Below, one piece after another: positions 4,678-54,295 of a stretch of 64,000 nt of DNA; the first letter of the stretch is position 1, and each line of letters opens with the position of its first letter. Both the position numbers and the translations under genes were made by a program. The stretch is from Minisyncoccota bacterium (GTDB taxonomy: Bacteria > Patescibacteriota > Minisyncoccia > UBA6257). Where the stretch lies: assembly GCA_028694995.1 (NCBI GenBank), contig JAQVJU010000001.1:80492-144491 (forward strand), in the 5' to 3' direction. The notes beneath the pieces are model-generated. The model ran no database searches and had not been told where the DNA came from. It saw nothing but the letters and a program-made list of their open reading frames with translations.

Positions 4678-4682
4678 AAAAC

Positions 4683-5849: not shown

Positions 5850-5894
5850 ACAATTTAGAATATTTAAAGGTCAAAATTTATTTAAAAAAATTAA

Positions 5895-6149
5895 ATGCTA
5901 CAAAATTTTTTAAAAAACTTTCCTCCAGAATTTGAAAAAACAATTACTGATTTATATGATATTATTTTGAAACGTTCTTTAATGAGAGCTTATGAAAATC
6001 TAGAAGATGAAAAAAAGGCAATGATGGCTAAAATCTTTAACTCAGAAAATGACACAGAAAAAAAAGATTTTCTTGAGAACTATTTAGGTGATTTGAATGA
6101 TATTATGTTTGAGGAAACAGAAAAATTACTACTTGAAATAAAAAAATAA
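5895..6149 (+). CDS. Small hypothetical protein (84 aa)
   Basis: ORF only; no recognisable domain. Confidence 0.3.
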   Translation: MLQNFLKNFPPEFEKTITDLYDIILKRSLMRAYENLEDEKKAMMAKIFNSENDTEKKDFLENYLGDLNDIMFEETEKLLLEIKK

Positions 6150-6195
6150 TTCGTTGGAAAACGAATTTTTCTTTTATCGTTTATTTTTCTTATAT

Positions 6196-6270
<75 letters not shown>

Positions 6271-6377
6271 AAATAAAAAAATATATTTTTAATTTAACCT
6301 TTTTAATAATAGCAATTTTTTAAATTAACGTCAATTGACTTTCAAGAAAATATCTTTAATATAGATAATAGAGAAGT

Positions 6378-6746
6378 ATGAATAAAAAAGTATTAGCAGA
6401 ATTAAAGAAAAAATTAGAAAGCGAAAGAACTCTTTTAAAAGAGAATTTGTTAAAATTTGCTGATAAAGATAAGAAAGTCGCTGGTGATTATGATACTCGG
6501 TTTCCAAGCTTTGGCGAGCGTTCTTCTTCTCCAGATGAAGAAGCAAAAGAAGTAGAAACCTATGAAAACCTTTTGGCTATTGAATATGCCCTAGAGCTTC
6601 GTTTAAAAGAGGTTAATGAGGCCTTAGAAAGGATTAAAAACAATACTTATGGTTATTGCGAGAATTGCAATAAAGAGATTGAATTAGGTCGTCTAAGAGC
6701 TAATCCAGCAGCTAAAACCTGTCTTTTATGCACTAATAAGCCATAA
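6378..6746 (+). CDS. DksA/TraR-family C4-type zinc-finger protein
   Basis: It has a C-terminal CENCNKEIELGRLRANPAAKTCLLC four-Cys motif and an N-terminal coiled coil. A TTGACT-N17-TAATAT-like promoter is present at about 6333-6365. Confidence 0.7.
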   Translation: MNKKVLAELKKKLESERTLLKENLLKFADKDKKVAGDYDTRFPSFGERSSSPDEEAKEVETYENLLAIEYALELRLKEVNEALERIKNNTYGYCENCNKEIELGRLRANPAAKTCLLCTNKP

Positions 6747-6768
6747 ATACTAATATGTTTTATAAAAA

Positions 6769-6800
6769 GCAGTGGTAATTCAAAATACCACTGTTTTTAT
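6769..6800. terminator. Bidirectional intrinsic terminator between convergent genes
   Basis: The hairpin CAGTGGTA-attcaaaa-TACCACTG is flanked by T-runs on both strands. Confidence 0.5.
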
Positions 6801-6856
6801 TTATTAGATTAAAAAATCAGCTAATAATAGCTGATCTTAAAAACAATATTGTTAAT

Positions 6857-7876
6857 TTACTGAACAAAAGGATTTTGAGCGCCATGAACTTCAAAATGAA
6901 GATGGCAACCATTAGAGTTTCCTGTATCGCCCATTCTACCTAATAAACTTCCTTGATAAACCTTATCTCCTGCTTTTACTAAAACTTCGCTTAAATGAGC
7001 ATAAACTGTCATTGTGCCATTATTATGCTGAACTTTAACTAAATTACCATATCCTAAATTATAGGCGCCTGATCCTTTAGCATCTATTACAATTCCATCT
7101 GCCGAAGCATAGATAGGGCTACCACAAGAACTAATAATATCAACTGCATTATAATAATGAAGAACGCCTTTGTTCCAACCACCAGAAACTGGAAAAGCAA
7201 AAAAATCATCATAGCAAGACCACGAACTTGTATCTTCTTTCATTGGCGTTAATCCAGAAGAAGAAACACTTGTTGTTTTCACTGTTGTGCTTGCTGAAGA
7301 ACCTGTAGAAGCAAGAATTCCTCCAGGAATGATAATTTCTTGTCCGGCTTGGATAGATTTTTCATCTTTTAGGTTGTTAAAACTAATAATATCATCAATT
7401 GATGCCTTGTATTTTGAAGCAATCGATGATAAAGATTCTCCGCTTTTAACCTTATGAGTCACTCCAGAAACAGGTAAAATAACAAGCTCTTGGCCTGGCT
7501 TAATAACTGATTTTGAATTAAGATCATTAGCCCATAAAACAGTATTTAAGCTAATGCCAAATTGAGCTGCTATTTTCCCAGGACTATCACCTTCTTTAAC
7601 TGTATAACTAATCGTTGTATTTCTTGAAATTAAAGGGATTGAAGATTCTGTTAGAGCATTCAAGCTTAAAAAACTGCTCTCATCTACAATCATAAGATAA
7701 TCAGGGGAATCTTCATCAGTTTTTTCATTTAAATCAGTTTCTAATATTTGACTGCCATCAACACAGATATTTTCTGAATAAGCATAAGCTGTTTTTGTTA
7801 ATTGATTAACTTCAATAGTTGTTGGATTAATATTCTCTTTAATTAAAAAACCCTCTCCTTGTCTTTGAACAACCAT
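6857..7876 (-). CDS. LysM-domain M23 family metallopeptidase (peptidoglycan hydrolase)
   Basis: It has two LysM-like segments (GDSPGKIAAQFGISLNTVLWANDL; GESLSSIASKYKASIDDIISFNNL) and a C-terminal M23 signature (GYGNLVKVQHNNGTMTVYAHL ... GDTGNSNGCHLHFEVH). Confidence 0.85.
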   Translation of the reverse strand: MVVQRQGEGFLIKENINPTTIEVNQLTKTAYAYSENICVDGSQILETDLNEKTDEDSPDYLMIVDESSFLSLNALTESSIPLISRNTTISYTVKEGDSPGKIAAQFGISLNTVLWANDLNSKSVIKPGQELVILPVSGVTHKVKSGESLSSIASKYKASIDDIISFNNLKDEKSIQAGQEIIIPGGILASTGSSASTTVKTTSVSSSGLTPMKEDTSSWSCYDDFFAFPVSGGWNKGVLHYYNAVDIISSCGSPIYASADGIVIDAKGSGAYNLGYGNLVKVQHNNGTMTVYAHLSEVLVKAGDKVYQGSLLGRMGDTGNSNGCHLHFEVHGAQNPFVQ

Positions 7877-8176
7877 AATTTGCGGAGAGAGGTAATAATT
7901 ACCAAAAAGGAAAGAAAATGCAAAGAAGCCAACAACGACTTGAAACAGAGGCGTGGTTATTATTTGTTGCTTTTTATCTATTAATTTCAGTTTATTCTTA
8001 ACAATCTCTATTCCTTTATTTAATTGTGTTTTCCAAGTAAAAATGTTAATTTAGAAGCAAATGTTCTATTTAAAAAGCCTTTTTCAAGGCTTTACAGTAT
8101 TTTATCAAAAGAATTGCAAAAGTCAACCCTTTTAAAAACCTAAAGCCAAAAGGATTTTAAGAAAAATATTTGTGTT

Positions 8177-8905
8177 TTATTCAGATAGTTCGCTTGGTAA
8201 TTTTATTGTTATTGGCTGACAATTAATTGCTTGTGTTTCAGAAATTAAAGGTGTGGCTCCAAATAAACCAAAGTCACGCAGATAAGCAACAATTATATTA
8301 TTAGGCAAGTAAACACCTTTGACTATTCCAAAAGGAATTTCTGTGCTTAACCATATTTCTGTTTCATAATCATCTACAAATTTGGCAGTTTGAATTGTTT
8401 TTCCAGTTTCTGTTGTATAGGTATCATATGTGTATCTGTTTATTGAGCTGTATTTGGCCGGAGTAACTATTGTGGGTAAATAAGCGGTTAGGGTTGGAAA
8501 TAATGTTTCCATTAAAGGAACATTAACACATATTATATCTTGACCTTGTTTTTCCTTGCTTGCCATTTTTACAATCTCATCATTAGTATAATCATACCAA
8601 ACCTGAAGAACAGAACCGGAGTTATTGTAAGCATTAGGATCTGTTTCCACTCCATAAATCCGTACTCCTTCTAAAGAAGACTCTCCAAGATAAATTGATC
8701 TTTGCAAACTTTCATTGCCTTCTTCATCATAGACTATTAATTCAGACCAGGCACCTTTTTCAGGCAATAGAAATCCTGTATAAATATCTGAATCCCAGCC
8801 AAGCTTGATTTTGTCTCTCTTTGAAAAAAAGAAAACAAAAAGCAAAAGACCAATTAAGAGCGCGCTAGCAAGAATAATGATTATTTTTTTATATTTTGGA
8901 TTCAT
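8177..8905 (-). CDS. N-terminally membrane-anchored exported hypothetical protein
   Basis: The ORF track gives 8177..8983. The likely start is the internal Met (MNPKYKKIIIILASALLIGLLL...), which avoids overlap with rsmA. There is a single N-terminal TM helix. Confidence 0.4.
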   Translation of the reverse strand: MNPKYKKIIIILASALLIGLLLFVFFFSKRDKIKLGWDSDIYTGFLLPEKGAWSELIVYDEEGNESLQRSIYLGESSLEGVRIYGVETDPNAYNNSGSVLQVWYDYTNDEIVKMASKEKQGQDIICVNVPLMETLFPTLTAYLPTIVTPAKYSSINRYTYDTYTTETGKTIQTAKFVDDYETEIWLSTEIPFGIVKGVYLPNNIIVAYLRDFGLFGATPLISETQAINCQPITIKLPSELSE

Positions 8906-8969
8906 TTTAATTGTTATTTTATTAAAATTCTTTCTCAACCTTGTAAATATTTTAACATAGCCACTAATT

Positions 8970-9785
8970 TTGTCAAAACACACTATGTCATTTATTAAAC
9001 AAAAAAAATTAGGTCAGGTTTTTCTTAAAGACCAGTCTTTTGTTAATAAAATCATCAAAGCAGGGCAAATTAATGAAAAGGATTTGGTTTTAGAAATTGG
9101 CGCTGGAAAAGGAATTTTAACCCAAGCATTGTTAAAAACTAAAGCTCAAGTCATTGCTATTGAGAAAGACCCAGGGCTTGTAAAATTTCTTAAAAAACGA
9201 TTTAAAAACAATTCAAATTTAAAAATTATCCAAGGAGATATTAGGGATTTTTTAATTTCTGATTCTCAAATCCTAAAATCTAATTTTAAGGTTATAGGTA
9301 ATATCCCTTATTATTTAACCTCACATTTAATCAAGTTATTATTAGAATTAGAAAAACAACCAAAGGATATTATTTTAATGATTCAGAAAGAAGTTGCTCA
9401 AAGAATAATTCAAAAACCTTCAAAAATGAATTTATTAGCTATTTCTGTTCAATTTTATGCTCATGCTAAAATTATTTCCTATGTGCCTAAAACTGCTTTT
9501 TCTCCAAAGCCAAAGATAGATTCAGCAATTATACAAATCACTCCTTTTATTGATATTAAAAGGACAAAGGCTGCTAAGCAATCTTTTTTTAAAATTGTTA
9601 AAGCTGGTTTTAAACAACCAAGAAAGCTTTTAATTAACAATCTTTGTTTAAATCTTAAAATTGACAAAAAGATTATTGAAAAATCTTTTAAAAAACTAAA
9701 TCTGCCTTTAAATATCAGGGCTCAAAACCTATCTTTAGACCAATGGACTTGTTTATCTTTATTATTAATAAATAATAAGTTATAA
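8970..9785 (+). CDS. rsmA: 16S rRNA (adenine1518/1519-N6)-dimethyltransferase
   Basis: It has KsgA motifs (LGQVFLKD, the SAM-binding LEIGAGKGILT, and NIPYYLTSHLI). Confidence 0.85.
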   Translation: MSKHTMSFIKQKKLGQVFLKDQSFVNKIIKAGQINEKDLVLEIGAGKGILTQALLKTKAQVIAIEKDPGLVKFLKKRFKNNSNLKIIQGDIRDFLISDSQILKSNFKVIGNIPYYLTSHLIKLLLELEKQPKDIILMIQKEVAQRIIQKPSKMNLLAISVQFYAHAKIISYVPKTAFSPKPKIDSAIIQITPFIDIKRTKAAKQSFFKIVKAGFKQPRKLLINNLCLNLKIDKKIIEKSFKKLNLPLNIRAQNLSLDQWTCLSLLLINNKL

Positions 9786-9821
9786 TAATACTGAATATTA
9801 TACAAATTTATTATTAAAAAT

Positions 9822-12209
9822 ATGAAAATAAAAAATGTATTTAAAATTGGGATTTTTGGCACTATCCTTTTGTTTTTATTAATAAGTCCTGTTTTTAAAT
9901 TCAATAACTTACAAGCATCTGCCTATACTTGCACTGAAGCTGGAGGAACATGTCGAGCAGGATGTAACAATGACGAAAAACCTGAATCACGGCTTACTTG
10001 TGCAGGTAGTTTCTTAAATACCAATTGTTGTGTCTCTGAGAAATTTAATTATGAACTATGGGTAGGGCAGCAAGAACTAAAATTACAACCTGTCTGTGTG
10101 CAAGCAGGATACATATGCAGGACCGCTTGTCATCAAGGAGAAGAAAGCATACAAGGGAATAACCTTTGCCCTATAGGACAAATGTGTTGTATGAATATTG
10201 CCACTGACAAGTTTCATCGAGAAGGATATGTTGAAGATGTGACTGGTACGGCTCAAGAATCAAATGCTGCAAAAATTTGTAATGCTCTTTTTTATGGAGG
10301 TGAAGACCCAAAAAGTAGGTTTGCTGAAATTTGGGGATGGGTAACAGGAGATGAAAACGCAAATGATACTTGGTGGGCACATAAAGCTTGTTTGGTTCAA
10401 ATAGGAGCTATTGAAGGACTTGGAAAAATGATTGGTGGAATGATTAATACATTAACAGGAAATATTCTTTGGGCTTTAAACCCTGATACTTATGGAGGGT
10501 TTGTTAAAAATCCTGGGGTAGTAGCAATTTGGGAAATCTTAAGAAATTTTATGAATTTAGCCCTTGTTTTAATCTTAATAATTATAGCTATTGCAACTAT
10601 TTTAGGAATTAAAAAATACCGCTGGCAAGACATCCTTTGGAAATTCATAGTTATTGCCTTACTTATTAACTTTAGCTTGGTTTTACCGGGCATAATATTA
10701 GATCTTTCTCAATTTACTACTTATGTATTCTTGAATTTATCTCGAGAAGCAACTGGCCAAAAAGATATTGCCCAAGCAATCATGGATAATTTTGCCACTA
10801 ATGAAATTTCAGGTGTTAAAAAATATAATTTTGCTTATGATGACAAAGCTGAAATTAAAACTATAACTGTAGAAGGGCAAGACATTAAGATGAGCACAAA
10901 AGGTTGGGGTCTTTCTTGGGGTAATTTCCTTCTTATTATCGCTGCCTTAGGTATAATTGGATTGTTTGTTTTTATCTCTTTAATCGCTATTTTCTTTGTT
11001 ATGGTTGCCCGGTCTTTTCTTATTATTATCTTACTTGCTGTTTCACCTATTGCTTTTGCTGCATGGGTATTGCCAAATACTGAAAAGTTTTGGAATTTAT
11101 GGTGGGGACAATTTTCTAAATGGTGTCTTTTTCCTATTACTTTTGCCATTTCTTTGTATGCAGGACTTGTTGTTGTATCTGAAATGAATGTTTTCCTTGC
11201 AAATCTTGGCGCTCAAGAAGAAAAATTAGGTATTATCACAATGATTATTCAAATAGTTCTCTTTTCTATGTTTTTAATTGGAGGATTAATTGTTTCAATC
11301 CAAAGTAGTGGCGCTGTGGGAAAAGTGGTTCAAAAACAAGTTAGTCGAGCTGGATGGCTTGCTGGAGCCTTTGTTGGGGCTAAAACAATTAAGGGAATTA
11401 AAGAAACTGGAATGTATAAAAAAGCAGGTGAAGCTTTGACTCATGTTCCTTTATTAAAAGGTGTTGGCCAAGAAATGTTAGTCACTGGAGAAAAAGCTAA
11501 GGCGACTAGAGTTAAAGAGTATGAAAAAGGCTTAGAGAATATAAGCTTGGGTAGCTTAAAGCAACTTGAAAAAGCTCCTTTACCATCTTCATTGGATAAA
11601 AATGCCTATGAAAAAAGAATTGCTTTGGTTAATAAATTAGCCGAGATGGGAGAATTAGGGGATGAATCTACGAAATTTATCAATCTCCATAAAGACGATG
11701 TTAGATTTAATAAAAAAGCTATCACTGAAGCAATTCCCCATGAATTTAAGGTAGAGGGAGGAAAATTAATTAATACCCCAGATTCAGTAGAAGAAAAAGT
11801 AGCAACTTTAACTTCATTAAAACCTGATAAATTAAAAGATAAAACCCAATTAAAAGATTTTGTTGAAAAAACTATAGACAAAGAATACCAAAAATCCATT
11901 GAGCAAGGAGCTTGGTTGCCCCATGAAACAGAAAAAGCCATGGAAGAAGCTTATGATAAGGTTTTCCAATCTTTAGTTAAAAAATTCTCAGCCTCACAAA
12001 TGGCTGCTTTTTGGAAAGGTTTAGGACCCAAGTATTTTAACGAAGAAAGACAAAAACTCTTTATAGAGTCAGTTAAGAGAGATCCTGCCGCATTAGCAAA
12101 ATTCAATAAACACATCAAAGATTCCCGGGCGCTAAGAGAAGAAAGTGGCATTGATCTAGAAAATACGCCTGATGCTTCAGCATGGGATAACATTTTTAAA
12201 GAAGAATGA
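9822..12209 (+). CDS. VirB6/TrbL-like polytopic membrane protein with N-terminal signal peptide and two tandem 6-Cys modules
   Basis: The 795 aa protein has a signal/anchor, then two C-x6-C-x3-C-x11/12-C-x5/8-CC modules, then at least 6 TM helices (aa ~230-500) and a charged C-terminal tail. It heads the T4SS-like cluster. Confidence 0.5.
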   Translation: MKIKNVFKIGIFGTILLFLLISPVFKFNNLQASAYTCTEAGGTCRAGCNNDEKPESRLTCAGSFLNTNCCVSEKFNYELWVGQQELKLQPVCVQAGYICRTACHQGEESIQGNNLCPIGQMCCMNIATDKFHREGYVEDVTGTAQESNAAKICNALFYGGEDPKSRFAEIWGWVTGDENANDTWWAHKACLVQIGAIEGLGKMIGGMINTLTGNILWALNPDTYGGFVKNPGVVAIWEILRNFMNLALVLILIIIAIATILGIKKYRWQDILWKFIVIALLINFSLVLPGIILDLSQFTTYVFLNLSREATGQKDIAQAIMDNFATNEISGVKKYNFAYDDKAEIKTITVEGQDIKMSTKGWGLSWGNFLLIIAALGIIGLFVFISLIAIFFVMVARSFLIIILLAVSPIAFAAWVLPNTEKFWNLWWGQFSKWCLFPITFAISLYAGLVVVSEMNVFLANLGAQEEKLGIITMIIQIVLFSMFLIGGLIVSIQSSGAVGKVVQKQVSRAGWLAGAFVGAKTIKGIKETGMYKKAGEALTHVPLLKGVGQEMLVTGEKAKATRVKEYEKGLENISLGSLKQLEKAPLPSSLDKNAYEKRIALVNKLAEMGELGDESTKFINLHKDDVRFNKKAITEAIPHEFKVEGGKLINTPDSVEEKVATLTSLKPDKLKDKTQLKDFVEKTIDKEYQKSIEQGAWLPHETEKAMEEAYDKVFQSLVKKFSASQMAAFWKGLGPKYFNEERQKLFIESVKRDPAALAKFNKHIKDSRALREESGIDLENTPDASAWDNIFKEE

Positions 12210-13243
12210 AAAAAGAAGAGTTCTTAAAAAAATTTGATGTTTTGCCAAAATCTCTCCAAGAAGCTCTTTATTCTGATAAAGTTATTTCTATCATCCAAGA
12301 CGCTGGCTCGCTTGCTGATTTAAATGAACAAGAGTTATTTATTTTAAATGAAATTGTTACTGATGTTCTTTTATTGAATATTTCTTCTGATGATTTTGTG
12401 ACAGAGTTAGAGTCTCGTTTAAAAATCAAGGATTCTTCTTTAAAGATTATCCATCAAATAATTCAAGATAAGATTTTTAATCAATACAAAAAAGAATTAC
12501 TGCAGTTTAAATCCAGGCCAATCACTTCTTTAGAAAAACCGCCAATGCAATTCAAAACACCAATTCTAGATAGTTTTGAAAAAAAACCTAAAAAAGAACT
12601 CTCTGAAAAAAATCAAATTACAAAAATTGATATTCAATCTGTTGCAGACAAAATAAAATCAGAGATAATAAAAGAACCCCTAGATCAATTCACTATACCT
12701 CAACCCAAAATTATTGAACCAAAAACAGAAAAACCTAAAGTAAAAATTACCGAATCAGAAATTACTAAACCTGAGCCAATTCCTGAATACATTACTCCTG
12801 AGCCAACAGAAATTAAAGTGACAAAACCAATAAATAAAGTAGAAGCGCTTAAAAAAGTTACCATACCAGAAACAACATTAATCAAACAAGAAAAAATCCG
12901 TAATAAATTGTTAGAAGCCATTACTAAAAAAGACACTCAACCTAAAATTGTAGAAGAAATAAAAAAAGTTTTAAAATCTAAAAAAGAAGATAAAGAAACA
13001 ATCGAAGAAAAACCTTTAGAGAAAAAGAAAACACCAGAAACAGAACCTTCCACTGTTTTGACAGGTAAAGGAGAAGAATTTAAAAGTGAAAAACCAATTC
13101 AAAAATCCACTGATAAAAAACCCTATGTTTTGGATGTTAAGTTACAAGAGATGAAAAAAAGATCAAAGGAAAAAGAGTTTGATCCTAAGCCAGTTCAATA
13201 TGAAAAGTATAAAAAGGAAAGTCCTTTTGGAAAAACATCATAA
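12206..13243 (+). CDS. K/P/E/T-rich low-complexity protein (T4SS-cluster associated)
   Basis: There are no TM segments and the protein is built of repetitive KP..E..K segments. The gene overlaps the upstream gene by 4 nt (operon). Confidence 0.35.
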   Translation: MKKEEFLKKFDVLPKSLQEALYSDKVISIIQDAGSLADLNEQELFILNEIVTDVLLLNISSDDFVTELESRLKIKDSSLKIIHQIIQDKIFNQYKKELLQFKSRPITSLEKPPMQFKTPILDSFEKKPKKELSEKNQITKIDIQSVADKIKSEIIKEPLDQFTIPQPKIIEPKTEKPKVKITESEITKPEPIPEYITPEPTEIKVTKPINKVEALKKVTIPETTLIKQEKIRNKLLEAITKKDTQPKIVEEIKKVLKSKKEDKETIEEKPLEKKKTPETEPSTVLTGKGEEFKSEKPIQKSTDKKPYVLDVKLQEMKKRSKEKEFDPKPVQYEKYKKESPFGKTS

Positions 13244-13249
13244 TTTATT

Positions 13250-13648
13250 ATGGCCTATCAAGTACCAAAATTTATAGAAGAAGAAACTAAATTAATGGGA
13301 TTAATTACCTTTACCCAGCTTTGGATTTTGTTAGGTTTTGCTATTATTCTTATTATCTTGTTTTTTCTTTTACAATTATGGCTTTGGTTTATTGTTTTTG
13401 CATTTATGGCACCATTTGGATTATTTCTTACCTTTGGTCAATTACATAACCAGCCAATTTATGCTCTGATCCTATCTGCTTTTCGTCATTTTTGGCTACC
13501 AAAATATTATCTTTGGCAAAAAGAACAAGTTATAAAAAAACCTTCTCCAGGTCCTTTATCCAAATATGAGAAAAGTGAAACAGTAACCACTCAAAAATCT
13601 TTAGACAAAGAAACACTTCAAAAATTAACTGAAATTTTAGATAAATAA
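13250..13648 (+). CDS. VirB3-like small two-TM protein
   Basis: The 132 aa protein has two adjacent hydrophobic helices (LMGLITFTQLWILLGFAIILIILFF.. / WLWFIVFAFMAPFGLFLTF). It lies immediately upstream of VirB4, as in Gram-positive-type T4SS. Confidence 0.45.
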   Translation: MAYQVPKFIEEETKLMGLITFTQLWILLGFAIILIILFFLLQLWLWFIVFAFMAPFGLFLTFGQLHNQPIYALILSAFRHFWLPKYYLWQKEQVIKKPSPGPLSKYEKSETVTTQKSLDKETLQKLTEILDK

Positions 13649-13649
13649 A

Positions 13650-14339
13650 ATGCCTCAAAAACAAAAAGAAAGTTTTAGTAGTCAATCACTTCTTTCTATT
13701 CATCAAATTAAAAAAGGAGTCGTTATCTTAAAAAACGGATCCTTACGTTCTGTTTTAGCTGTTTCTGGAATAAACCTAGATTTAAAATCAGAGCAAGAGC
13801 AATTTAGTATTTTAACTAATTGGCGCAATCTATTAAATAACCTGGATTTTACATTAGAAGTTATTGCTCATTCACGCCGTGTTCATATTGCGTCCTATTT
13901 AAACTTTCTTCAAGAAAAAATCAATCAAGAAACAAATACTTTGCTTAAATTACAAGGAGAAGATTATCACTCTTTTATTAAAGGCTTAGTTACTGAGAGT
14001 AATATTATGAAGAAAAAATTCTATGTGGTTATTCCTTATGATCCTATTATCCTTAAGCCAAAAGACATTTTTGGACAAATAGTGGAAGCATATAAAAACT
14101 TACTTAATTTAAAACATCAGGCTTTTTCTAAAACCCTTTCTTTGTCTAATGATGAATTTAATCAATATTATCAGCAACTGATGATTCGCCAAAACAATGT
14201 TATAAACAATTTCACTCGCATGAATTTACAAGCTCAGCCTTTGACAACTAAAGAATTGATAGAATTGTTTTTTAACTTATATAATCCAGAAACTTTTGAA
14301 AGAGAATCTATTCCTATTCCTTCAGAACTTAATGAATAA
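13650..14339 (+). CDS. VirB4/TraC-family ATPase, N-terminal domain encoded as separate ORF
   Basis: Its pattern (SIHQIKKGVVILKNGSLRSVLAVSGINLDLKSEQEQFSILTNWRNLLNNLDFTLEV) matches the conserved VirB4 N-terminus (..dGii.tkdg.y..il.v.piNf.LkseeEqe.i...f..fL..L). It ends 11 nt before the ATPase ORF, in a different frame. Confidence 0.55.
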   Translation: MPQKQKESFSSQSLLSIHQIKKGVVILKNGSLRSVLAVSGINLDLKSEQEQFSILTNWRNLLNNLDFTLEVIAHSRRVHIASYLNFLQEKINQETNTLLKLQGEDYHSFIKGLVTESNIMKKKFYVVIPYDPIILKPKDIFGQIVEAYKNLLNLKHQAFSKTLSLSNDEFNQYYQQLMIRQNNVINNFTRMNLQAQPLTTKELIELFFNLYNPETFERESIPIPSELNE

Positions 14340-14350
14340 ATAATACTATT

Positions 14351-16147
14351 ATGAAATTACCTTTCTTCTCACGGAAAAAACAAATAAAACCTCAAGAAGC
14401 TATTTATACTGAAGCTTTTTCCACGCTTCAAAATTTAATTGCCCCAGCTGGATTGGAAATAAACACAAATTATCTTAAATTAGGAGAACAATATTGTGCT
14501 ACTCTTTTTGTTTTAACTTACCCAGATTATTTAGCCTCTAATTGGTTTTCTTCAGTTATTAATCTTGATGAGTCTTTTAATATTTCTATCTTTTTCCATC
14601 CTCTTGATATTAATAAAGTTTTAAGAAATTTAAGGAAAAAATCTGCGGAAATTCAAGCTCAGATTAACATTGAAGCTGAAAGAGGATTGGTTCGTAATCC
14701 TTTATTAGAAGCAGCTTTATCTAATGTTGAAAAATTAAGAGATACGATCCAACAAGGCAGTGAGAGATTGTTTGACGTTGGTGTTTATATCACTTTTTTT
14801 TCTAATAGCCAGGAAGGGCTTTCAAAAGTAGAGAGTAAAATCCGAAATATATTAGAACAACAACTTATTTATGCCAAACCTGCTGTTTTTAGGGAATTTG
14901 AGGGATTAGAAAGCACTATGCCTCTTGGAGTTAATAGATTACTTTTAACCACACCTTTAAATTCTCAACCAGCATCTACTCTTTTTCCTTTTTCTTCTTT
15001 AGATCTTTCAGATAATAAAGGGATTCTTTATGGCATTAATATTCATAATAATAGTTTAATAATTTTTGACCGTTTTTCTCTTCCAAATGCAAATATGGTG
15101 GTTTTTGCTCAAACTGGAGCTGGAAAAAGCTATGCTATTAAATTAGAAATTCTCCGTTCCCTTTTATTAGGCACTAATATTTTAATCATTGATCCGGAAA
15201 ATGAATATCAATATTTAGCTGAATCAATTGGCGGCAGCTATTTTAATATTGCCGTGGCTTCTGAAGATAATATTAATCCTTTTGAATTGCCTCTGGTAAA
15301 AGAAGATGAGGAAACAAATGAAGAAGTTTTTAGAAACCATGTTTTGAGTCTTATTGGACTTATCAAATTAATGCTTGGCGGATTAACTCCACAGGAAGAA
15401 TTGATTTTAGATCAAGCCATTATTCAAACTTATGCCAGTCGGGATATTTTTCCTGAAAACATGACTGAACAAAAAGCACCACCTTTAATGGAAGATCTGG
15501 AAAATGTTCTTGAGAATATTGAAGGGGGAGAAGATTTAGCAGCTAAACTTTATAAATTCACTAAAGGGACTTATGCTGGTTTTCTTAATAAACAATCAAA
15601 CATTGATATTAATAACCGACTGGTTGTTTTTGGCATTAGAGAACTAGCAGATGAATTAAGACCTATTGCCATGTATGTTGTTTTAAACTATATCTGGACA
15701 ATGATAAAGAAAGACCTTAGAAAAAGAATTGCTATTATTGATGAAGGTTGGTGGCTTTTAAATCATGAAGAAAGCGCTTCTTTCTTGTTCAGTTTAATAA
15801 AAAGAGCCAGAAAATATTATTTAGGAGTCACCTTTATCACCCAAGACATTGAGGACGCCTTAGCTTCTCCTTATGGCAAACCTATTATTACTAATTCCTC
15901 TCTATCATTATTGCTTCGTCAATCTCCAGCAAATATAGAAATAATTGGCAAGGCTTTAAATCTTACTGAACAAGAAAAAACAATTCTTTTACAATCTCCT
16001 GTAGGCACTGGTTTGTTTTTTGCCCAAGAAAAACATGCGGCCATTCAAATTGTAGCTTCTTATGCAGAAGACCAAATTATCACCTCAAATCCTGCTCAGC
16101 TTTTAGCTATTAAAGAAGCGAAAAAACAATTAAAATCTGAGTCTTAA
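14351..16147 (+). CDS. VirB4/TraC/CagE-family T4SS ATPase (middle plus C-terminal ATPase domains)
   Basis: It has Walker A FAQTGAGKSYAIKLEIL and Walker B IAIIDEGWWLL. It also carries the VirB4 middle region (YCATLFVLTYPDYLASNWFSSV). Confidence 0.8.
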   Translation: MKLPFFSRKKQIKPQEAIYTEAFSTLQNLIAPAGLEINTNYLKLGEQYCATLFVLTYPDYLASNWFSSVINLDESFNISIFFHPLDINKVLRNLRKKSAEIQAQINIEAERGLVRNPLLEAALSNVEKLRDTIQQGSERLFDVGVYITFFSNSQEGLSKVESKIRNILEQQLIYAKPAVFREFEGLESTMPLGVNRLLLTTPLNSQPASTLFPFSSLDLSDNKGILYGINIHNNSLIIFDRFSLPNANMVVFAQTGAGKSYAIKLEILRSLLLGTNILIIDPENEYQYLAESIGGSYFNIAVASEDNINPFELPLVKEDEETNEEVFRNHVLSLIGLIKLMLGGLTPQEELILDQAIIQTYASRDIFPENMTEQKAPPLMEDLENVLENIEGGEDLAAKLYKFTKGTYAGFLNKQSNIDINNRLVVFGIRELADELRPIAMYVVLNYIWTMIKKDLRKRIAIIDEGWWLLNHEESASFLFSLIKRARKYYLGVTFITQDIEDALASPYGKPIITNSSLSLLLRQSPANIEIIGKALNLTEQEKTILLQSPVGTGLFFAQEKHAAIQIVASYAEDQIITSNPAQLLAIKEAKKQLKSES

Positions 16148-16157
16148 TTAAATATTA

Positions 16158-16604
16158 ATGACAGAACAAGCACCAAATAAAGAAGGATCTTTAATAGAAC
16201 AACAACCAACAGAACCTGTAGAACAAGAAACCTCTCCTTCCATAGAAGAAAAAACTTCCTCTGAAGAGAAAAAACCAGAAACAAAGCCAAAAGAAAAGAA
16301 GATGGATATTATTATCTTTCTTTTGCTTCTTATCCCTGCTATAATGAAGGATATTATAGAGATAGTTTTAGGCCTAATTCCAGGAATTAATTTTTTTGTC
16401 TGGTTGATAGCTCTTCCTTTTTCCGCTTATATATTATTTATTAGTATTATCACTGGTATAAGAACAAAATTAATCTTAGGTGGTCAATTAATAGATTTAT
16501 TACCTTTGGCTAGCATTCTTCCGATTACCACTGGAACTGTTATCTTTGCTTATTTATCACAAGGGGCTGTTGAAAAGGTTGCTAAAAAATCTTCTAAAAT
16601 ATAA
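16158..16604 (+). CDS. Small polytopic membrane protein with E/K/P-rich N-terminus (T4SS-cluster component)
   Basis: The 148 aa protein has three predicted TM helices after a charged ~45 aa N-terminus. Confidence 0.35.
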   Translation: MTEQAPNKEGSLIEQQPTEPVEQETSPSIEEKTSSEEKKPETKPKEKKMDIIIFLLLLIPAIMKDIIEIVLGLIPGINFFVWLIALPFSAYILFISIITGIRTKLILGGQLIDLLPLASILPITTGTVIFAYLSQGAVEKVAKKSSKI

Positions 16605-16633
16605 AGAATCATTTTAAAAAAATAAATAAAAAC

Positions 16634-17536
16634 ATGAAACAAACAAATTTTTATAATAAGATATCTGTATTCTTTTTGATTGTTTTTGTTGTAAATTTTC
16701 TTTTTTGGAATTTATTAATAACTAAAGAAGCTTTGGCTGCTTCTCAAGCTCGTTATTCTTGTGATTCAGCAACTAAGGAATGTTATCGGGATGATGAAAA
16801 TGGAGAATATACTTGTAAAATTCTCTGTAATAATAAATGTTCTGGAGAATCTCCGTCTTCTGTTGACCCTTCGCCCTTAAATCCAGGGTGTGGTTGTGGT
16901 GGAGGCGAGGCACAACCTGTTTATATTGTAGGTTCAGTAGAACAATCTGCTGCTCAAACCGAAGCTGCTAGAAATATCAAAACTTTACAAGATTTAGCAG
17001 ATATTTCTGGGATTACAACAGATTTATTGGACGAAGTAGAAGATGTTATTATAACAGGAAAAAACATCCCAGAAAAATTACAGGGATATTTTAATAAAGT
17101 CAAAGATAAAGGCAACTTTTCTGTTACTGATAAAAACATATTAGGGAATGCTATTAGTCAAGGATTGCCAATTCCTGAAAACTTGCGCTCAGATTTCCTT
17201 GAAGCAGCAATTCAATTTGGTGATATAAGTGATTTGGTTCAGGACAAATTTTTAGACTTACTAGGCGTTGGTTTAGATGTTGATTGGATTTGTGGAATGC
17301 TATCAAATGCAGCTACTGCTCTTCCTTGGGGATTAGGAGTTCCTGTTTCCATGGCCATTGGTGCAGCTTGCCCTATAATCCTAAAAGAGTTATTAGCTTC
17401 TTTAGGCGCTTATTCAACAAAACAAACTACAGAAGAATTAGTACAAACAATACCTGTGCCTACATTTCGATTTTTTCAATGGGAAGTTGGTTTGCCTGGA
17501 TTTTTTAAACCAGGACAAATATTAAAGTTTAAATAA
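16634..17536 (+). CDS. Exported Cys-rich protein (T4SS-cluster component)
   Basis: It has an N-terminal signal/anchor, a CDSATKECYRDDENGEYTCKILCNNKCSG Cys cluster and a GCGCGGG motif. There is a C-terminal hydrophobic segment. Confidence 0.35.
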   Translation: MKQTNFYNKISVFFLIVFVVNFLFWNLLITKEALAASQARYSCDSATKECYRDDENGEYTCKILCNNKCSGESPSSVDPSPLNPGCGCGGGEAQPVYIVGSVEQSAAQTEAARNIKTLQDLADISGITTDLLDEVEDVIITGKNIPEKLQGYFNKVKDKGNFSVTDKNILGNAISQGLPIPENLRSDFLEAAIQFGDISDLVQDKFLDLLGVGLDVDWICGMLSNAATALPWGLGVPVSMAIGAACPIILKELLASLGAYSTKQTTEELVQTIPVPTFRFFQWEVGLPGFFKPGQILKFK

Positions 17537-17544
17537 AACAATAA

Positions 17545-18405
17545 ATGTTTCTGTCTTTAAATCAATATTGTAATTTTAAGAATATCACTCTGTTCTTGAT
17601 TGTATTCATCTGTTGTTTAAATTTTAGTCAAGGATTAGTTGTTGAGGCTGCAAATAATTTTTCCTCTGAAGTAGTTGAATTAGATGCTAAGAATTCAGTA
17701 ACGGAATTAATTAAATATCTAGTTCAATGGGCTTTTAGATTAGCTGGATTATTCGCTTTTATTATGATTATTTATGCTGGATTTCAATATCTTACTGCTG
17801 GGGGAAATGTTGAACAACAAAAAGAAGCTCAAGAAAGAATTTTTAATACTTTTATTGGAATTGTTTTATTGTTTTCTTTCTGGCTTATTCTAAATCAAAT
17901 TAATCCTAATATCCTCCAAACACCAGAACCAAAACCATCAACAGCTAAGCCATCAGTGGAAACAGAACAATTACCAGTAACTGTAGGTAATTTTGTTTTA
18001 ATTGGAGCAGGCTCTGGTAAATATTCTAATATCCCATTGAGTTGGGAATTTCCCAATGGTGCTTATATTGAAGAAAGCGTTGCTGAAAGTTTATTGAACT
18101 TAGCTAATAGTAATGCCCCAAAAGGATGGCAAGTCACAGAAGCTTGTGTCTCAATCATTGGAAACGAGTGCGTCACTACAGTCCACCATGTGTCAAATTG
18201 CCATAAAATCGGTACTTGCGTTGATGTAGGATTTGGTGGAGACCCAGGTATTTCAACAAGAGCAGCTTTCATTAAAGCTGCTAATACCTCTGGTTTTGAT
18301 GTTATCGATGAATATTCAGCTGCAGGATCCCAATATGGAAGTGGTTTCCATCTTGAAATTAATATGCCTAATTGCAAAACCGGTGGTGCCTTCTTTTGCT
18401 CTTAA
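17545..18405 (+). CDS. TrbC/VirB2-like pilin-domain protein with C-terminal Cys/His-rich extracellular domain
   Basis: It has a signal peptide, then two hydrophobic helices separated by a short polar loop (FRLAGLFAFIMIIYAGFQYLTAGGNVEQQKEAQERIFNTFIGIVLLFSFWLIL), typical of conjugative pilin folds. A ~150 aa C-terminal domain follows, with HHVSNCH/GTC/CKTGG. Confidence 0.4.
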   Translation: MFLSLNQYCNFKNITLFLIVFICCLNFSQGLVVEAANNFSSEVVELDAKNSVTELIKYLVQWAFRLAGLFAFIMIIYAGFQYLTAGGNVEQQKEAQERIFNTFIGIVLLFSFWLILNQINPNILQTPEPKPSTAKPSVETEQLPVTVGNFVLIGAGSGKYSNIPLSWEFPNGAYIEESVAESLLNLANSNAPKGWQVTEACVSIIGNECVTTVHHVSNCHKIGTCVDVGFGGDPGISTRAAFIKAANTSGFDVIDEYSAAGSQYGSGFHLEINMPNCKTGGAFFCS

Positions 18406-18412
18406 TTAAAAA

Positions 18413-18886
18413 TTATTTCTCTTGGGGTTTAATTACAATATGTCTTTCTTTGTTTTCGCCAACACTTTCAGTGACAACATCACTTCTTAAAGCAATTTCT
18501 AAATGAATAATCCTTCTGTCTCGGGCTCTCATTGGAGGTAATTCCATTATCTGATTAGTTAAGGCTACTTGGTGGGCTATTTTCCTAGCAAATTCTCTTA
18601 ATTTCTCTTCTTGAATTGCCCGATAATTATTAATATCTAAGATAATACGCCATTGTATCTCTATGGCGTTTTTTCTTAAAGGCATATTTAAAAGATATTC
18701 TAAAGCCTGTAGATTTTCTCCATCCCTACCAATTAACAAACCACTATCATCAATTCGAGAATCAGTTTTTAAAAAAACTTGTATTAAATTATCTTGAGGA
18801 TTTTCTTGAATATTAATTTCAAAATCTGAAAAACCGATAATAGATAAGATATTTTCTAAAAATTGTTTGATTTCTATTGTTTTCAT
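18413..18886 (-). CDS. Jag/KhpB-like R3H-domain RNA-binding protein
   Basis: It has a C-terminal R3H-like segment (ELPPMRARDRRIIHLEI). It occupies the conserved position downstream of yidC. Confidence 0.7.
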   Translation of the reverse strand: MKTIEIKQFLENILSIIGFSDFEINIQENPQDNLIQVFLKTDSRIDDSGLLIGRDGENLQALEYLLNMPLRKNAIEIQWRIILDINNYRAIQEEKLREFARKIAHQVALTNQIMELPPMRARDRRIIHLEIALRSDVVTESVGENKERHIVIKPQEK

Positions 18887-18899
18887 TTAAATAAAAACT

Positions 18900-19583
18900 T
18901 TATTGGGTTTTGTTATTATTTATAACAATTTCTTGTTTTTTTCTGAATTTAATAAAAAACTCTTGCGAGATATTAACTAAGCTAAAACCAATCCAATAAA
19001 GAATAACAACTGCGGAGAATTTTTTATAAAAAAGCAAGATAATAAAAGGTAAAAGAAGCATCATTGTTTTGTTTTGTCCAACTGAAGATTGGGAAAAAGC
19101 TAAAGTTGAATTTAAAGAAGCAGATACAATAGCTAAAATCAAACTAGGCATTTTTAAATCAATTAATCCTAGAAACAAATAGTTTATTTCCGTATTTAAC
19201 TTAATAAATGGATAAAGAAATGAGGACCAATCACTATTAATAGCCTGGTTAAAAAATGCAAATAAAATTAAAAAAATAAAGAGTTGGGCGATCAAAAAAA
19301 GATAAGCCCCTCCTAAACTAACGTTTTCTTCCTGAAATATCTTCATCACTTCTTGATTTGCTTTTACTGGATCTTGTTTGTATTTATTCTGAATTTCTTT
19401 AACTTTTGGCTGTAATTGAGATATCTTTTTTTGACTATCCATTGCTTTTTGGTGCCAGGGCCAGATAATCAAACGAATTAAAGCTGCTAAAACTAAAATT
19501 GCCCATCCTAATTCACCCTGAAAGATATTTAGGAAAATAGTTAAAATATTGTACAGAGGTTGATAAATTAATAATTGAATCAT
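18900..19583 (-). CDS. yidC: Membrane protein insertase YidC/Oxa1 (short form)
   Basis: It has the short Gram-positive-type YidC TM pattern. Its context is rnpA-yidC-jag. Confidence 0.8.
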   Translation of the reverse strand: MIQLLIYQPLYNILTIFLNIFQGELGWAILVLAALIRLIIWPWHQKAMDSQKKISQLQPKVKEIQNKYKQDPVKANQEVMKIFQEENVSLGGAYLFLIAQLFIFLILFAFFNQAINSDWSSFLYPFIKLNTEINYLFLGLIDLKMPSLILAIVSASLNSTLAFSQSSVGQNKTMMLLLPFIILLFYKKFSAVVILYWIGFSLVNISQEFFIKFRKKQEIVINNNKTQ

Positions 19584-19586
19584 TTT

Positions 19587-19919
19587 TTATAATATTCTTA
19601 ATAAAAATTCTTTGAGTTGAGTTTGTAATTCTTGAAAACTTAAATCAAGACAACCTTTTTTAATGTAAACAAGAACATCAAAACCTTTGGGAAGAGAATT
19701 TATTAATTCTCTTAAAATATTTTTTACTCTTCTTTTTATTAAATTTCTTTTTACTGCCAAACGATAATTTTTTGAACTAACAATAACTGCAAAACGGGAT
19801 TTTTTAAGATTGTTCTTAAGAAACAAAACTCTAAAATATGAATGTTCTTTTCTTTGGCCTCGTTGCAGAATTTCTTTGAAAATAATAGAAGAATTAATTC
19901 TATTACTCTTAGGCAACAT
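19587..19919 (-). CDS. rnpA: Ribonuclease P protein component
   Basis: The 110 aa basic protein has the FAVIVSSKNYRLAVKRNLIKRRVKNILREL motif. It sits between rpmH and yidC. Confidence 0.75.
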   Translation of the reverse strand: MLPKSNRINSSIIFKEILQRGQRKEHSYFRVLFLKNNLKKSRFAVIVSSKNYRLAVKRNLIKRRVKNILRELINSLPKGFDVLVYIKKGCLDLSFQELQTQLKEFLLRIL

Positions 19920-19967
19920 TGATTATTTTATTATAAAAAAACTTGAGCTATTAAAGGCAGCTCAAAT

Positions 19968-20102
19968 TTAAGGACTGAGTTTTTTTCTTTTCTTTCTACG
20001 TCGTTGAGTGATAATTTTTTTCCCACCAGGAGAAGACATTCTTTTTAAAAATCCATGCGTTCGGGCTCTTTTTTTCTTTTTGGGTTGATAGGTGACAGAC
20101 AT
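19968..20102 (-). CDS. rpmH: 50S ribosomal protein L34
   Basis: Manual translation of the minus strand gives [44 protein letters not shown] (44 aa). It is below the ORF-track size cutoff. Confidence 0.85.
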
Positions 20103-20299
20103 TTTAAATTAATTAAATTATATTTATTTAGAAAACTTCTTTAGCATCTAATAGCATAACAAAATCTTTGTATAATATCAAATTCACTAATTATCAACAC
20201 CTTATCCACTAAACTGGTTGTAAAATTTGGAAGAAGAATTAATTTGTTTTATACTTATATTAACTTTTGTTAATTATTATTGTTATTTAAATTTATTTT
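20103..20299. promoter_or_regulatory. Divergent rpmH/dnaA promoter region with DnaA-box-like sites
   Basis: TTATCAACA sits at 20191-20199 and TTATCCACT at 20202-20210. The region is AT-rich. Confidence 0.45.
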
Positions 20300-21670
20300 A
20301 TGGATTTTCAAGAGCTCTGGGAATCAGCTTTAGGAGAAATAAAATTAAATATTTCTAAAGCTAATTATTTAACTTGGCTTAAAGACGCTTTTATTGTGGA
20401 TTTTAAGGAAAGTACTATTTTCTTAGGCGTCCCTTCTAATTTTACAAAAGAATGGTTAAAGAATAAATACAATAAACAAATCTTAGGCGCTCTTTGTAAT
20501 TTAGAACCCACAATAAAACAAATTGAATACATTGTGACTACAGACAAGACCGCTCTAAAGAAAATTAGTCAGGTTAAAAAAAAGCAATCTATTCAATCAA
20601 AAAAAACATCTGTTCTTGATGAACCTTTGGAATTTAATATTGATCCAGATACTAATTTAAATCCTAAATATACTTTTGAAAATTTTATTGTGGGTACTAA
20701 TAATGAATTGGCTAATGCTGCTGCTTTAGCCATTACAGAAAACTTAGGTAGTAAATACAATCCTTTGTTTATTTATGGCGGTGTCGGATTAGGGAAAACC
20801 CATTTATTACAGGCAATTGGTAATCGATTAAAATCAGAAAATAAAAAACTAAAAATTAAATATGCTTCTTCTGAAAAATTCACTGATGAGCTTATTAATG
20901 CTATTCGTAATCAGAAAATGACTGATTTTAAAAAAAGTTTCCGTAATTTAGACTTACTTTTAATAGATGATATTCAGTTTATTGCTGGAAAAGATAAAAC
21001 TCAAGAAGAACTCTTTCATACTTTTAATAATCTGCATGGAAAAAACAAACAAATTGTTTTTACTTCTGATCGGCCACCAAAATCCATTCCTTCAATTGAA
21101 GAACGTTTAAGATCTCGTTTTGAAGGAGGGATGATTGCTGATATTGGTTATCCTGATTTTGAAACTCGTTTGGCTATTTTAAAAGCCAAAAGTCAGGAAG
21201 TCAGTCATTTAATTGGAGAAGATGTTTTAAAATATATTGCTGAAACTATTTCTCGTAATATTAGAGAATTAGAAGGAGCTCTTAATAGAGTTATTGTTCA
21301 TGCTCGATTAAAAAATGGAATGATTACCATAGATGAAGTAAAAAAAATCTTATCTTCAATTTTAAATAAGGCTAATCAATATATTCCACCTAAGGAAGTT
21401 ATAAAAAAAATTGCCTCTTTTTATGACTTAAGTGAAAGTGAAATTTTAGGACATTCAAAAAAGAAAGAATTAGTAAAACCAAGACAAATTGTAATGTATC
21501 TTTTAAGAGAAGAATTTAAATATTCTTACACTAATATTGCTGAGAAAATAGGGAATCGAGATCATACTACAATTATCCATGCTTATAAAAAAATTGATAA
21601 AGAAATAGAAGAAAATCCAGTATTTGCTCAAGAAGTAAATATCTTAAAAGAGATAATTTATAACAAATAA
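20300..21670 (+). CDS. dnaA: Chromosomal replication initiator protein DnaA
   Basis: It has AAA+ motifs (GGVGLGKTHLLQAIGN, LLLIDDIQFIAGK) and a C-terminal DNA-binding domain. Confidence 0.95.
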   Translation: MDFQELWESALGEIKLNISKANYLTWLKDAFIVDFKESTIFLGVPSNFTKEWLKNKYNKQILGALCNLEPTIKQIEYIVTTDKTALKKISQVKKKQSIQSKKTSVLDEPLEFNIDPDTNLNPKYTFENFIVGTNNELANAAALAITENLGSKYNPLFIYGGVGLGKTHLLQAIGNRLKSENKKLKIKYASSEKFTDELINAIRNQKMTDFKKSFRNLDLLLIDDIQFIAGKDKTQEELFHTFNNLHGKNKQIVFTSDRPPKSIPSIEERLRSRFEGGMIADIGYPDFETRLAILKAKSQEVSHLIGEDVLKYIAETISRNIRELEGALNRVIVHARLKNGMITIDEVKKILSSILNKANQYIPPKEVIKKIASFYDLSESEILGHSKKKELVKPRQIVMYLLREEFKYSYTNIAEKIGNRDHTTIIHAYKKIDKEIEENPVFAQEVNILKEIIYNK

Positions 21671-21939
21671 TTCCTTGTTGATATTTGGTGAATAAATTGT
21701 GTTTTAAAAGTGAGTCTTCTGTTGTATAAACTAAGTAAATCATTTTCATCTATTTTAACCCACTTTTTATTCTCAAAATATCCAATAGTTTTCAACATTT
21801 TATCCCTATATTAATTCATTAGAAAAGACTTAATAAAAACATTAAAAACATTTATCCCCAAAAAAAACAAGTTCTTAATAATAACAATAATTTATATTAT
21901 ATATTAATTTATTATTAAAAAATTAAAATAATTAAAAAT
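21671..21939. promoter_or_regulatory. Putative oriC (dnaA-dnaN spacer): DnaA boxes plus AT-rich unwinding element
   Basis: TTATCCCTA sits at 21799-21807 and TTATCCCCA at 21852-21860. A nearly pure A/T stretch lies at about 21880-21935. Confidence 0.5.
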
Positions 21940-54090: not shown

Positions 54091-54098
54091 CTTAATCT

Positions 54099-54185: not shown

Positions 54186-54193
54186 GAACCTAA

Positions 54194-54265: not shown

Positions 54266-54295
54266 CAGAACAATAATAAATAGCAAAAATCAGTC

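Follow-up and report, generated by a model that had tools for sequence, protein, structure and literature searches.

An origin-proximal type IV secretion locus in a Minisyncoccota bacterium, with a pilin that carries a predicted LAS-fold domain

Results

We analyzed a 64,000-nt stretch of a Minisyncoccota bacterium genome (assembly GCA_028694995.1, contig JAQVJU010000001.1, positions 80,492 to 144,491 of the forward strand), hereafter called the window, which carries a type IV secretion system (T4SS) locus at window positions 9822-18405. A preliminary description, made from the DNA letters alone, had proposed eight co-directional and tightly packed genes, and the analysis bore this out: eight open reading frames (ORFs) lie on the + strand, with spacing that ranges from a 4-nt overlap to a 29-nt gap. 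In order, they encode a VirB6/TrbL-like polytopic protein (ORF1), a soluble protein (ORF2), a PrgI-family protein (ORF3), a TrsD/TraD-like protein (ORF4), a VirB4 ATPase (ORF5), a small membrane protein (ORF6), an exported protein (ORF7) and a VirB2-like pilin (ORF8). The GC content of the locus (0.30-0.34) is that of the remaining window, and an identical locus is found on two public metagenome contigs. Related loci were collected by a scan that took one genome per species. Eighty were fetched, giving 82 loci for comparison when the two copies of the window locus are included. All 80 come from candidate phyla radiation (CPR) metagenome-assembled genomes, labeled Paceibacterota, Parcubacteria, Azambacteria, Portnoybacteria and so on, with VirB4 identities of 50-99%; the closest is from Ca. 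Paceibacterota STE_68, whose VirB4 is 99% identical.

The motor of the system is encoded by ORF5 (14351-16147, + strand; 598 residues), which scores 357.4 bits against the VirB4 model NF045971 (CD1110 family; cutoff 325). Further matches are to Pfam P-loop_TraG (E = 4e-25) and TIGR00929 VirB4_CagE (E = 2e-36). Both nucleotide-binding motifs are intact, with Walker A (AQTGAGKS) at residue 253 and Walker B (IAIIDE) at residue 460. The preliminary description had suggested profile searches that could reveal an FtsK/HerA-type ATPase instead, and the score above the curated VirB4 cutoff rules this out. The best plasmid relatives of ORF5 are CD1110-family VirB4 proteins from Firmicutes and Actinobacteria, at 27-31% identity. 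Immediately upstream, ORF4 (13650-14339, + strand; 229 residues) matches the TrsD model NF041427 (E = 9e-9), and a protein identical to it has PF26593 (TraC-like) on record. BLASTP also aligns ORF4 (E = 3e-11) with a separate ORF that lies upstream of a short VirB4 on the B. cereus plasmid pJ7_3. By these matches, ORF4 is the free-standing equivalent of the VirB4 N-terminal domain. ORF3 (13250-13648, + strand; 132 residues) has the two transmembrane (TM) segments expected from its earlier description as a VirB3-like protein (residues 14-32 and 48-66), and it scores 27.7 bits against Pfam PrgI (gathering score 27).

ORF3, ORF4 and ORF5 tile the Mycoplasma VirB3-VirB4 fusion model NF045975 in order, covering model positions 16-125, 97-273 and 284-893, respectively, and are therefore three pieces of one ancestral module. 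We considered whether the split VirB4, which the preliminary description had correctly noted together with its intact Walker motifs, could be a pseudogene or a frameshift. This was rejected: the TrsD-like ORF is separate in 77 of the 80 related loci and on the Bacillus plasmid. Judged from these comparisons, the "split" is the standard TrsD plus VirB4 arrangement and not a lesion.

ORF1 (9822-12209, + strand; 795 residues) begins with a signal peptide and a Cys-rich ectodomain of about 200 residues, followed by about seven TM segments (residues 232-493) and a hydrophilic C-terminal tail of 300 residues. In 62 of 82 loci, a member of its family is found at this position. One homologue (P0081) scores 26.1 bits against Pfam TrbL, just above the gathering score of 25.9, and another that is 70% identical to ORF1 (P0072) reaches 21.4 bits, below that score. 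Topology and position fit the original VirB6/TrbL-like label, and it is through these homologues that the label applies, whereas the TrbL match of ORF1 itself is insignificant (E = 0.75). Sub-threshold NCBIfam matches were obtained with MMCAP2_0566 (E = 4e-8) and with the transmembrane protein Mbov_0396 of an integrative and conjugative element (ICE; E = 2e-4).

Two further features of ORF1 were recorded. The ectodomain contains two tandem six-Cys repeats with the spacing C-x6-C-x3-C-x11/12-C-x5/8-CC (residues 37-70 and 92-123; window 9930-10190), which were found only in the window strain and in its sister, L020. A beta-defensin reading of these repeats was discarded; the likeness is one of spacing alone, Pfam Defensin_beta_2 gives E = 0.38, and the repeats occur in just those two strains. 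Within the tail, residues ~720-762 (window 11979-12107) weakly resemble the IgG-binding domain, a three-helix unit, found in protein A of S. aureus (NEE.R..FI.S.K.DP). This too was set aside as probably chance or convergent helical similarity, given single-domain E-values of ~0.007-0.2 and no Pfam match.

The last gene of the locus, ORF8 (17545-18405, + strand; 286 residues), encodes the VirB2-like pilin anticipated by the preliminary description, with a score of 53.8 bits against T4SS_pilin PF18895 (gathering score 26.6). It is the sole pilin gene in the 64 kb. A signal peptide is followed by a two-helix hairpin (residues ~48-125), a Pro-rich linker and a Cys-rich C-terminal domain (residues 146-286). 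Within this domain H220, G223, D227, E256 and H269 are invariant in 27 homologues, forming an H-x6-D...E...H pattern. In a wider set of 23 pilin C-domains, the His, Gly and Asp are invariant and the distal His is at least 90% conserved. An AF2 model is confident in this domain. Based on these features, the ORF8 C-domain is probably a LAS (Hedgehog/DD-peptidase) zinc-peptidase fold, predicted to cut peptidoglycan. VirB2 pilins have both termini outside the cytoplasm and the connecting loop inside, so the C-domain of ORF8 should be extracellular.

We then compared this domain with databases and with other pilins. Its sequence has no Pfam, NCBIfam or PDB match, and a PDB profile search with the ORF8 family gave chance matches only. 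Other groups of motif-bearing pilin C-domains reach 16-22.5 bits against Peptidase_M15_4, M15_3 and HH_signal, below the gathering scores of 23-25. When the ORF8 C-domain family was aligned to these other groups with hhalign, only the short HxxGxxxD motif aligned, and we therefore do not claim a single family for all pilin C-domains. A phmmer search of the C-domain against 1.84 billion representative sequences returned 16 matches. Ten of the 14 inspected are pilin fusions, and the others comprise fragments, a spurious repeat protein and a short protein that is not a pilin. Of the 84 pilin ORFs from the 82 loci, 62 extend at the C-terminus by 80 residues or more, and many of these extensions are Cys-rich. 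The full motif pair (H..G...D plus HxH/ExxH) occurs in pilin C-terminal extensions at 19 loci, or at 22 if the first motif alone is counted. A pilin-peptidase fusion is not mentioned in the searchable text of the Patescibacteria T4SS literature (PMC10633639, PMC12102498, PMC12857230 and the 2026 preprint cited below), and is possibly a new detail of this type of locus.

Two other window genes encode putative wall-active proteins. A LysM-LysM-Peptidase_M23 protein is encoded 2 kb upstream of the locus (6857-7876, - strand), in an adjacency to rsmA that is kept in 12 related loci, and an SLT_2 transglycosylase-domain protein is encoded 25 kb downstream (43357-44841, + strand). Either could add wall-hydrolase activity.

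The remaining three proteins of the locus are two conserved accessory proteins and one clade-specific protein. ORF2 (12206-13243, + strand; 345 residues) is soluble and lacks TM segments, with a conserved helical N-terminal domain of about 100 residues and a disordered tail rich in Lys, Pro and Glu. ORF6 (16158-16604, + strand; 148 residues) has a charged cytoplasmic N-terminus and three TM segments, the first of which contains a nearly invariant Asp. The preliminary description regarded the protein set between VirB6 and VirB4 as non-canonical, but the K/P-rich protein, like the small protein after VirB4, belongs to a family with a fixed position in other loci. Local iterative profiles place the ORF2 family in 63 of 82 loci, always immediately 5' of PrgI, and the ORF6 family in 65, nearly always within ~100 nt 3' of virB4. 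Neither ORF2 nor ORF6 has a Pfam or NCBIfam match, and Pfam searches over 39 members per family gave nothing consistent. By conservation of sequence and position, ORF2 and ORF6 are unannotated core accessories of Paceibacteria T4SS loci.

ORF7 (16634-17536, + strand; 300 residues) is an exported protein restricted to the immediate clade (nine loci). It consists of an N-terminal anchor or signal, a region with seven Cys residues, a helical domain and a hydrophobic helix, and ends with the invariant motif QTIPVPTF..WEVGLPGF.K.GQ (window 17449-17536). No fold relative was found for its structure model. ORF7 and ORF6 are evidently the two proteins that had been called Cys-rich and exported. This holds for ORF7, whereas ORF6 is a membrane protein with no cysteines at all; the Cys-rich exported parts of the machine are ORF7, the ectodomain at the N-terminus of ORF1 and the pilin's C-terminal domain. 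Elsewhere in the window, a GILT-like thiol reductase/oxidoreductase domain protein (38485-39450, + strand) is possibly part of the disulfide handling that Cys-rich exported T4SS domains need.

In distant Paceibacteria loci (L007, L009, L021, L044 and L045), pilins have a motif of the same type, Y/W-E-V-x-L/I-P-G, directly behind their signal peptide. Among five proteins (P0011, P0023, P0059, P0062 and P0065) there are single-chain fusions of an N-terminal extension, the motif, a pilin and a LAS domain, and the extension of P0011 resembles the helical region of ORF7. These arrangements suggest that ORF7 and ORF8 represent a single unit in split form, with the E-V-G-L-P-G motif as a processing or docking signal.

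We next considered the chromosomal setting. The upstream neighbor of the locus is rsmA/ksgA (8970-9785, + strand; Pfam RrnaAD on record), which belongs to the context and not to the machine. At its other end the locus converges on jag/khpB, the first gene of a cluster (18413-23076) that begins 8 nt downstream and comprises jag/khpB, yidC, rnpA and rpmH on the - strand, followed by dnaA (start at 20300) and dnaN (start at 21940) on the + strand. GC skew is consistently positive from ~22 kb, which fits an origin near dnaA. The position beside the origin given in the preliminary description is thus supported by both gene content and skew. DnaA-box-like sites were not above the number expected by chance, and a scan for promoters and terminators did not outperform shuffled sequence. 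Were oriC to lie in the spacer between rpmH and dnaA, the 8.6-kb T4SS operon would be transcribed toward the origin, head-on to the leftward replication fork. The origin-ward orientation of the operon is kept in related loci.

The same setting recurs in other species. The order rsmA-VirB6-ORF2-PrgI-TrsD-VirB4-ORF6-...-pilin(s)-jag-yidC-rnpA-dnaA-dnaN is kept down to 50% VirB4 identity, rsmA adjoins the locus in 39 of the 80 related loci, and a gene of the origin cluster lies within the fetched flank in 51. This is the outcome of the synteny comparison with CPR loci that had been proposed in the preliminary description: the gene order is shared by dozens of Paceibacteria species. Across 35 loci, VirB4 identity tracks DnaA identity with r = 0.95. 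The recurrence of this gene order in dozens of species, together with the tracking of DnaA by VirB4, therefore argues for vertical inheritance and not for a mobile element.

Mobility genes were sought by a Pfam scan of 38 window ORFs: the eight of the locus and 30 others, mostly of at least 200 residues, with most ORFs below ~200 residues left out. In agreement with the preliminary description, no relaxase, VirD4/TcpA coupling protein or integrase was recognized among these 38 ORFs; oriT was not searched for. The other 30 ORFs are housekeeping genes (trigger factor, ClpP, PBP1, RuvC, PheST, GyrB, TyrS, GAPDH, RecA, RF1, ribosomal proteins, ABC transporters, FtsX and others). The sole FtsK-like ATPase (45630-47780) is the full-length housekeeping FtsK, with its four-TM region and its alpha, beta (FtsK_SpoIIIE) and gamma domains.

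These data bear on the possibility that the locus is an ordinary conjugative element, either an ICE or an integrated plasmid, with a relaxase, coupling protein and integrase that lie just outside the window or were missed. The closest VirB4 and TrsD relatives outside the CPR do come from Firmicutes, Actinobacteria and Mycoplasma, where they reside on ICEs and conjugative plasmids, and distant mobility genes are possible beyond the 64 kb, relaxases having been reported in 103 of 3,035 genomes (PMC12102498). However, the locus is wedged between rsmA and jag-yidC-rnpA-dnaA, and its borders show no integrase, repeats or tRNA. The insertion point, like the gene order, is the same in dozens of species, the composition is not atypical, and the other scanned ORFs have housekeeping functions throughout. 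We regard a conjugative element as extremely improbable.

Close strains were also compared. Between the window and L020, VirB4 is 99% identical, and ORF6 to ORF8 are only 84-90% identical. A third sequence, L001 (ENA ERZ27247361 k141_1368948), was compared with window 4351-20312 and with L020 and is a clean mosaic. Up to ~15.9-16.3 kb, at the 3' end of virB4, it shares 100% identity with the window; from there on, across ORF6-ORF8 and jag-yidC-rnpA, it shares 100% identity with an STE_68-like strain. The cause is either a chimeric assembly, joined within the highly conserved virB4, or recombination of the surface-exposed module between strains.

Many other Paceibacteria T4SS loci contain further genes. 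An N-anchored beta-propeller-like protein of ~370-410 residues is encoded after the pilins in 44 of 82 loci, an Ig-like exported protein in 37-38, and an upstream exported Cys-containing protein of 500-750 residues in 28-29. In some loci, jag is preceded by three genes for 12-TM transporter-like proteins. Loci with such extra genes include L018, L019, L021, L024, L029, L044, L045, L055, L066 and L072. None of these four kinds of gene was found in the 64-kb window.

The rest of the window holds a few other features. An Eco57I-like N6-adenine DNA methylase of 489 residues lies beside a 295-residue ORF with no Pfam match (33070-35407, - strand), in the stretch of the window with the lowest GC content (0.26-0.28), and the pair may be a restriction-modification islet. 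An Rfam search of the DNA returned tRNAs only. Five tRNA genes lie within 535 bp (54019-54553, + strand), and single tRNAs are found at 6199-6270 (- strand) and 61829-61899 (+ strand).

Discussion

The locus described here is, in our assessment, very probably a vertically inherited chromosomal T4SS of Paceibacteria. It would belong to a Patescibacteria-specific clade that derives from monoderm conjugation machinery of the MPF-FATA type, and would serve a non-conjugative role in host interaction. The composition of the system, the missing relaxase and the position beside the origin have already been published between 2023 and 2025. The episymbiosis-linked, non-conjugative use suggested in the preliminary description agrees with that literature (PMC10633639, PMC12102498 and PMC12857230), in which it had already appeared.

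Two studies are closest to the present locus. Transposon sequencing showed that the Saccharibacterium Southlakia epibionticum cannot grow as an epibiont without an origin-proximal T4SS (SEML1_0006-0019); the authors noted its pilins and that it has neither a relaxase nor a coupling protein (Wang et al. 2023, Cell; PMC10633639). A survey of 3,035 genomes then defined a Patescibacteria VirB4 clade within MPF-FATA, with TrsD, PrgI, VirB6 and VirB2-like pilins near virB4 and, in Paceibacteria, a virB4 neighborhood of dnaA, dnaN, rnpA, ksgA and rpmH (Quinonero-Coronel et al. 2025; PMC12102498). In that survey, genes resembling those for type IV coupling proteins (T4CPs) were present in most Patescibacteria, usually far from virB4. 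The window locus resembles the Southlakia and Patescibacteria-clade systems in having a VirB4 of ~600 residues after TrsD-like and PrgI proteins, with a VirB6-like protein and PF18895 pilins in the cluster, and in lying on the chromosome beside dnaA/dnaN, rnpA, rpmH and ksgA with no relaxase or T4CP nearby. The TrsD homologue, PrgI and the PF18895 pilin are all within 4 kb of the window virB4. The Southlakia locus differs in having six short pilins (~125-190 residues, several from genes of 381-417 nt) and an NTF2/VirB8-like protein, and in carrying peptidase and lysozyme genes as separate neighbors of virB4. The window locus, in contrast, has a single pilin fused to a predicted LAS-fold domain, no VirB8-like gene or separate hydrolase gene in the operon, and the clade-specific ORF7.

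Two more distant relatives are conjugation systems of monoderms. In the pGO1/pSK41 subclass of MPF-FATA (TrsC-TrsD-TrsE-...-TrsG), exemplified by pJ7_3, a small membrane protein, a separate TrsD-like ORF and a short VirB4 follow in the same order, and the pJ7_3 VirB4 is 29% identical to ORF5. Unlike the window locus, pJ7_3 has a lysozyme-family (VirB1-like) gene after these, is a replicon with rep and par genes, and lacks a PF18895 pilin. The Mycoplasma ICE module, composed of the pilin-like Mbov_0395, the TM protein Mbov_0396 and the VirB3-VirB4 fusion Mbov_0397, is matched by ORF8, by ORF1 and by ORF3, ORF4 and ORF5 together, respectively. All of these matches fall below equivalog cutoffs, and the module differs in joining VirB3 and VirB4 in one polypeptide, in belonging to a mobile ICE and in its gene order. 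Because ORF8 matches the Mbov_0395 model, a pilin-like protein also accompanies some monoderm (Tenericutes) systems. The LAS/MD-clan zinc peptidases (VanX, Peptidase_M15 and the Hedgehog N-terminal domain) differ from the ORF8 domain in that the latter is fused to a T4SS pilin hairpin.

What such a machine moves has been discussed by others. A 2025 review speculated that the system is an uptake conduit (PMC12857230), and a Minisyncoccota parasite in culture, which takes up RNA from its host, was seen with tubular structures that reach the host (bioRxiv 10.64898/2026.06.21.733656). Were the machine dedicated to DNA uptake, as are the archaeal Ced system and the ComB T4SS of Helicobacter, it would bring in DNA from the environment or the host, for nucleotides or for transformation. 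ORF5 does have weak local similarity to CedB (E = 1e-12; 47 bits against a cutoff of 700) and CedD (E = 4e-3; 15.8 bits against 600), both far below the cutoffs, and nucleotide synthesis is missing from CPR bacteria. In the ABY1 class, T4SS loci co-localize with comF, recG and radA (PMC12102498). Yet no competence or recombination genes flank the window locus, and no CedA-like partner was recognized. In Southlakia, competence needs comEC and type IV pili; deletion of comEC ends transformation and leaves the cells viable, and the T4SS is still essential (PMC12857230). We consider DNA uptake as the dedicated function to be unlikely.

Alternatively, the machine could be an adhesive or wall-remodeling filament for host attachment that translocates no substrate, its pilin C-domain being a peptidoglycan-binding adhesin and not an enzyme. 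No coupling ATPase or effector candidate was recognized among the ORFs scanned, and Hedgehog-type LAS domains act as ligands in animals. The frequent long pilin extensions, and the greater divergence of ORF6 to ORF8 than of VirB4 in the comparison with L020, are the pattern expected of host-recognition surfaces. Against this, the invariance of the catalytic set (the two His, the Asp and the Glu) in the 27 homologues argues for retained chemistry, a VirB6 channel and a VirB4 motor have been kept, as they are in systems that translocate, and type IV pili already provide adhesion in Saccharibacteria (PMC12857230). A purely adhesive filament therefore seems to us rather improbable, without being far-fetched.

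For the host-interaction T4SS that we favor, the following mechanism can be proposed. The VirB6/TrbL-like protein, PrgI, the TrsD-like N-domain and VirB4 would form the membrane translocon and its motor. By analogy, VirB4, acting with TrsD and PrgI, would hydrolyze ATP to extract the pilin from the membrane and polymerize it into a short tube, with VirB6 and VirB3 as the platform. The peptidase tethered to the pilin would cut peptidoglycan stems or cross-links locally, in the cell's own wall and possibly in that of the host, and the LAS domain would thereby replace the separate VirB1-type hydrolase of other monoderm systems. The assembled machine would act as a contact-dependent conduit to the host cell for epibiotic life, importing host macromolecules or exporting proteins. 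Conjugation is not its expected role, because no relaxase or coupling protein is present in the scanned neighborhood.

Several points weigh against this interpretation. The host-interaction use is drawn from the literature, and what the machine carries, in which direction and to what end are all inferred. The VirB6/TrbL-like assignment of ORF1 is transitive, made through its homologues, and is sub-threshold for ORF1 itself. No VirB8-like protein was found in the operon, and the genome beyond the 64-kb window could encode a VirD4-like coupling protein. A Foldseek search of the ORF8 model against the PDB gave nothing significant. Hedgehog-type LAS domains, finally, can be non-catalytic binding modules.

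The pilin fusion also invites a bolder proposal, which we put forward as a speculative one. In a sizeable part of the Paceibacteria, the outward C-terminus of the pilin may bear a catalytically intact LAS peptidoglycan peptidase, giving a tube studded or tipped with wall-cutting enzymes that would bore through the cell's own wall and that of the host and open a feeding conduit. In such a machine the E-V-G-L-P-G motif might couple ORF7 to ORF8 through processing or docking.

The comparison of loci defines a minimal conserved Paceibacteria core of VirB6, ORF2, PrgI, TrsD, VirB4, ORF6 and pilin, in which ORF2 and ORF6 are obvious candidates for the missing structural parts. Accessory genes that many relatives carry, namely the beta-propeller, Ig-like and upstream exported ones, have been given up in the window lineage. 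The locus thus provides a further Paceibacteria example of a known, and probably essential, host-interaction machine. If the ORF8 peptidase is active, it would explain how such T4SSs manage without VirB1, and how a pilus could breach a host wall.

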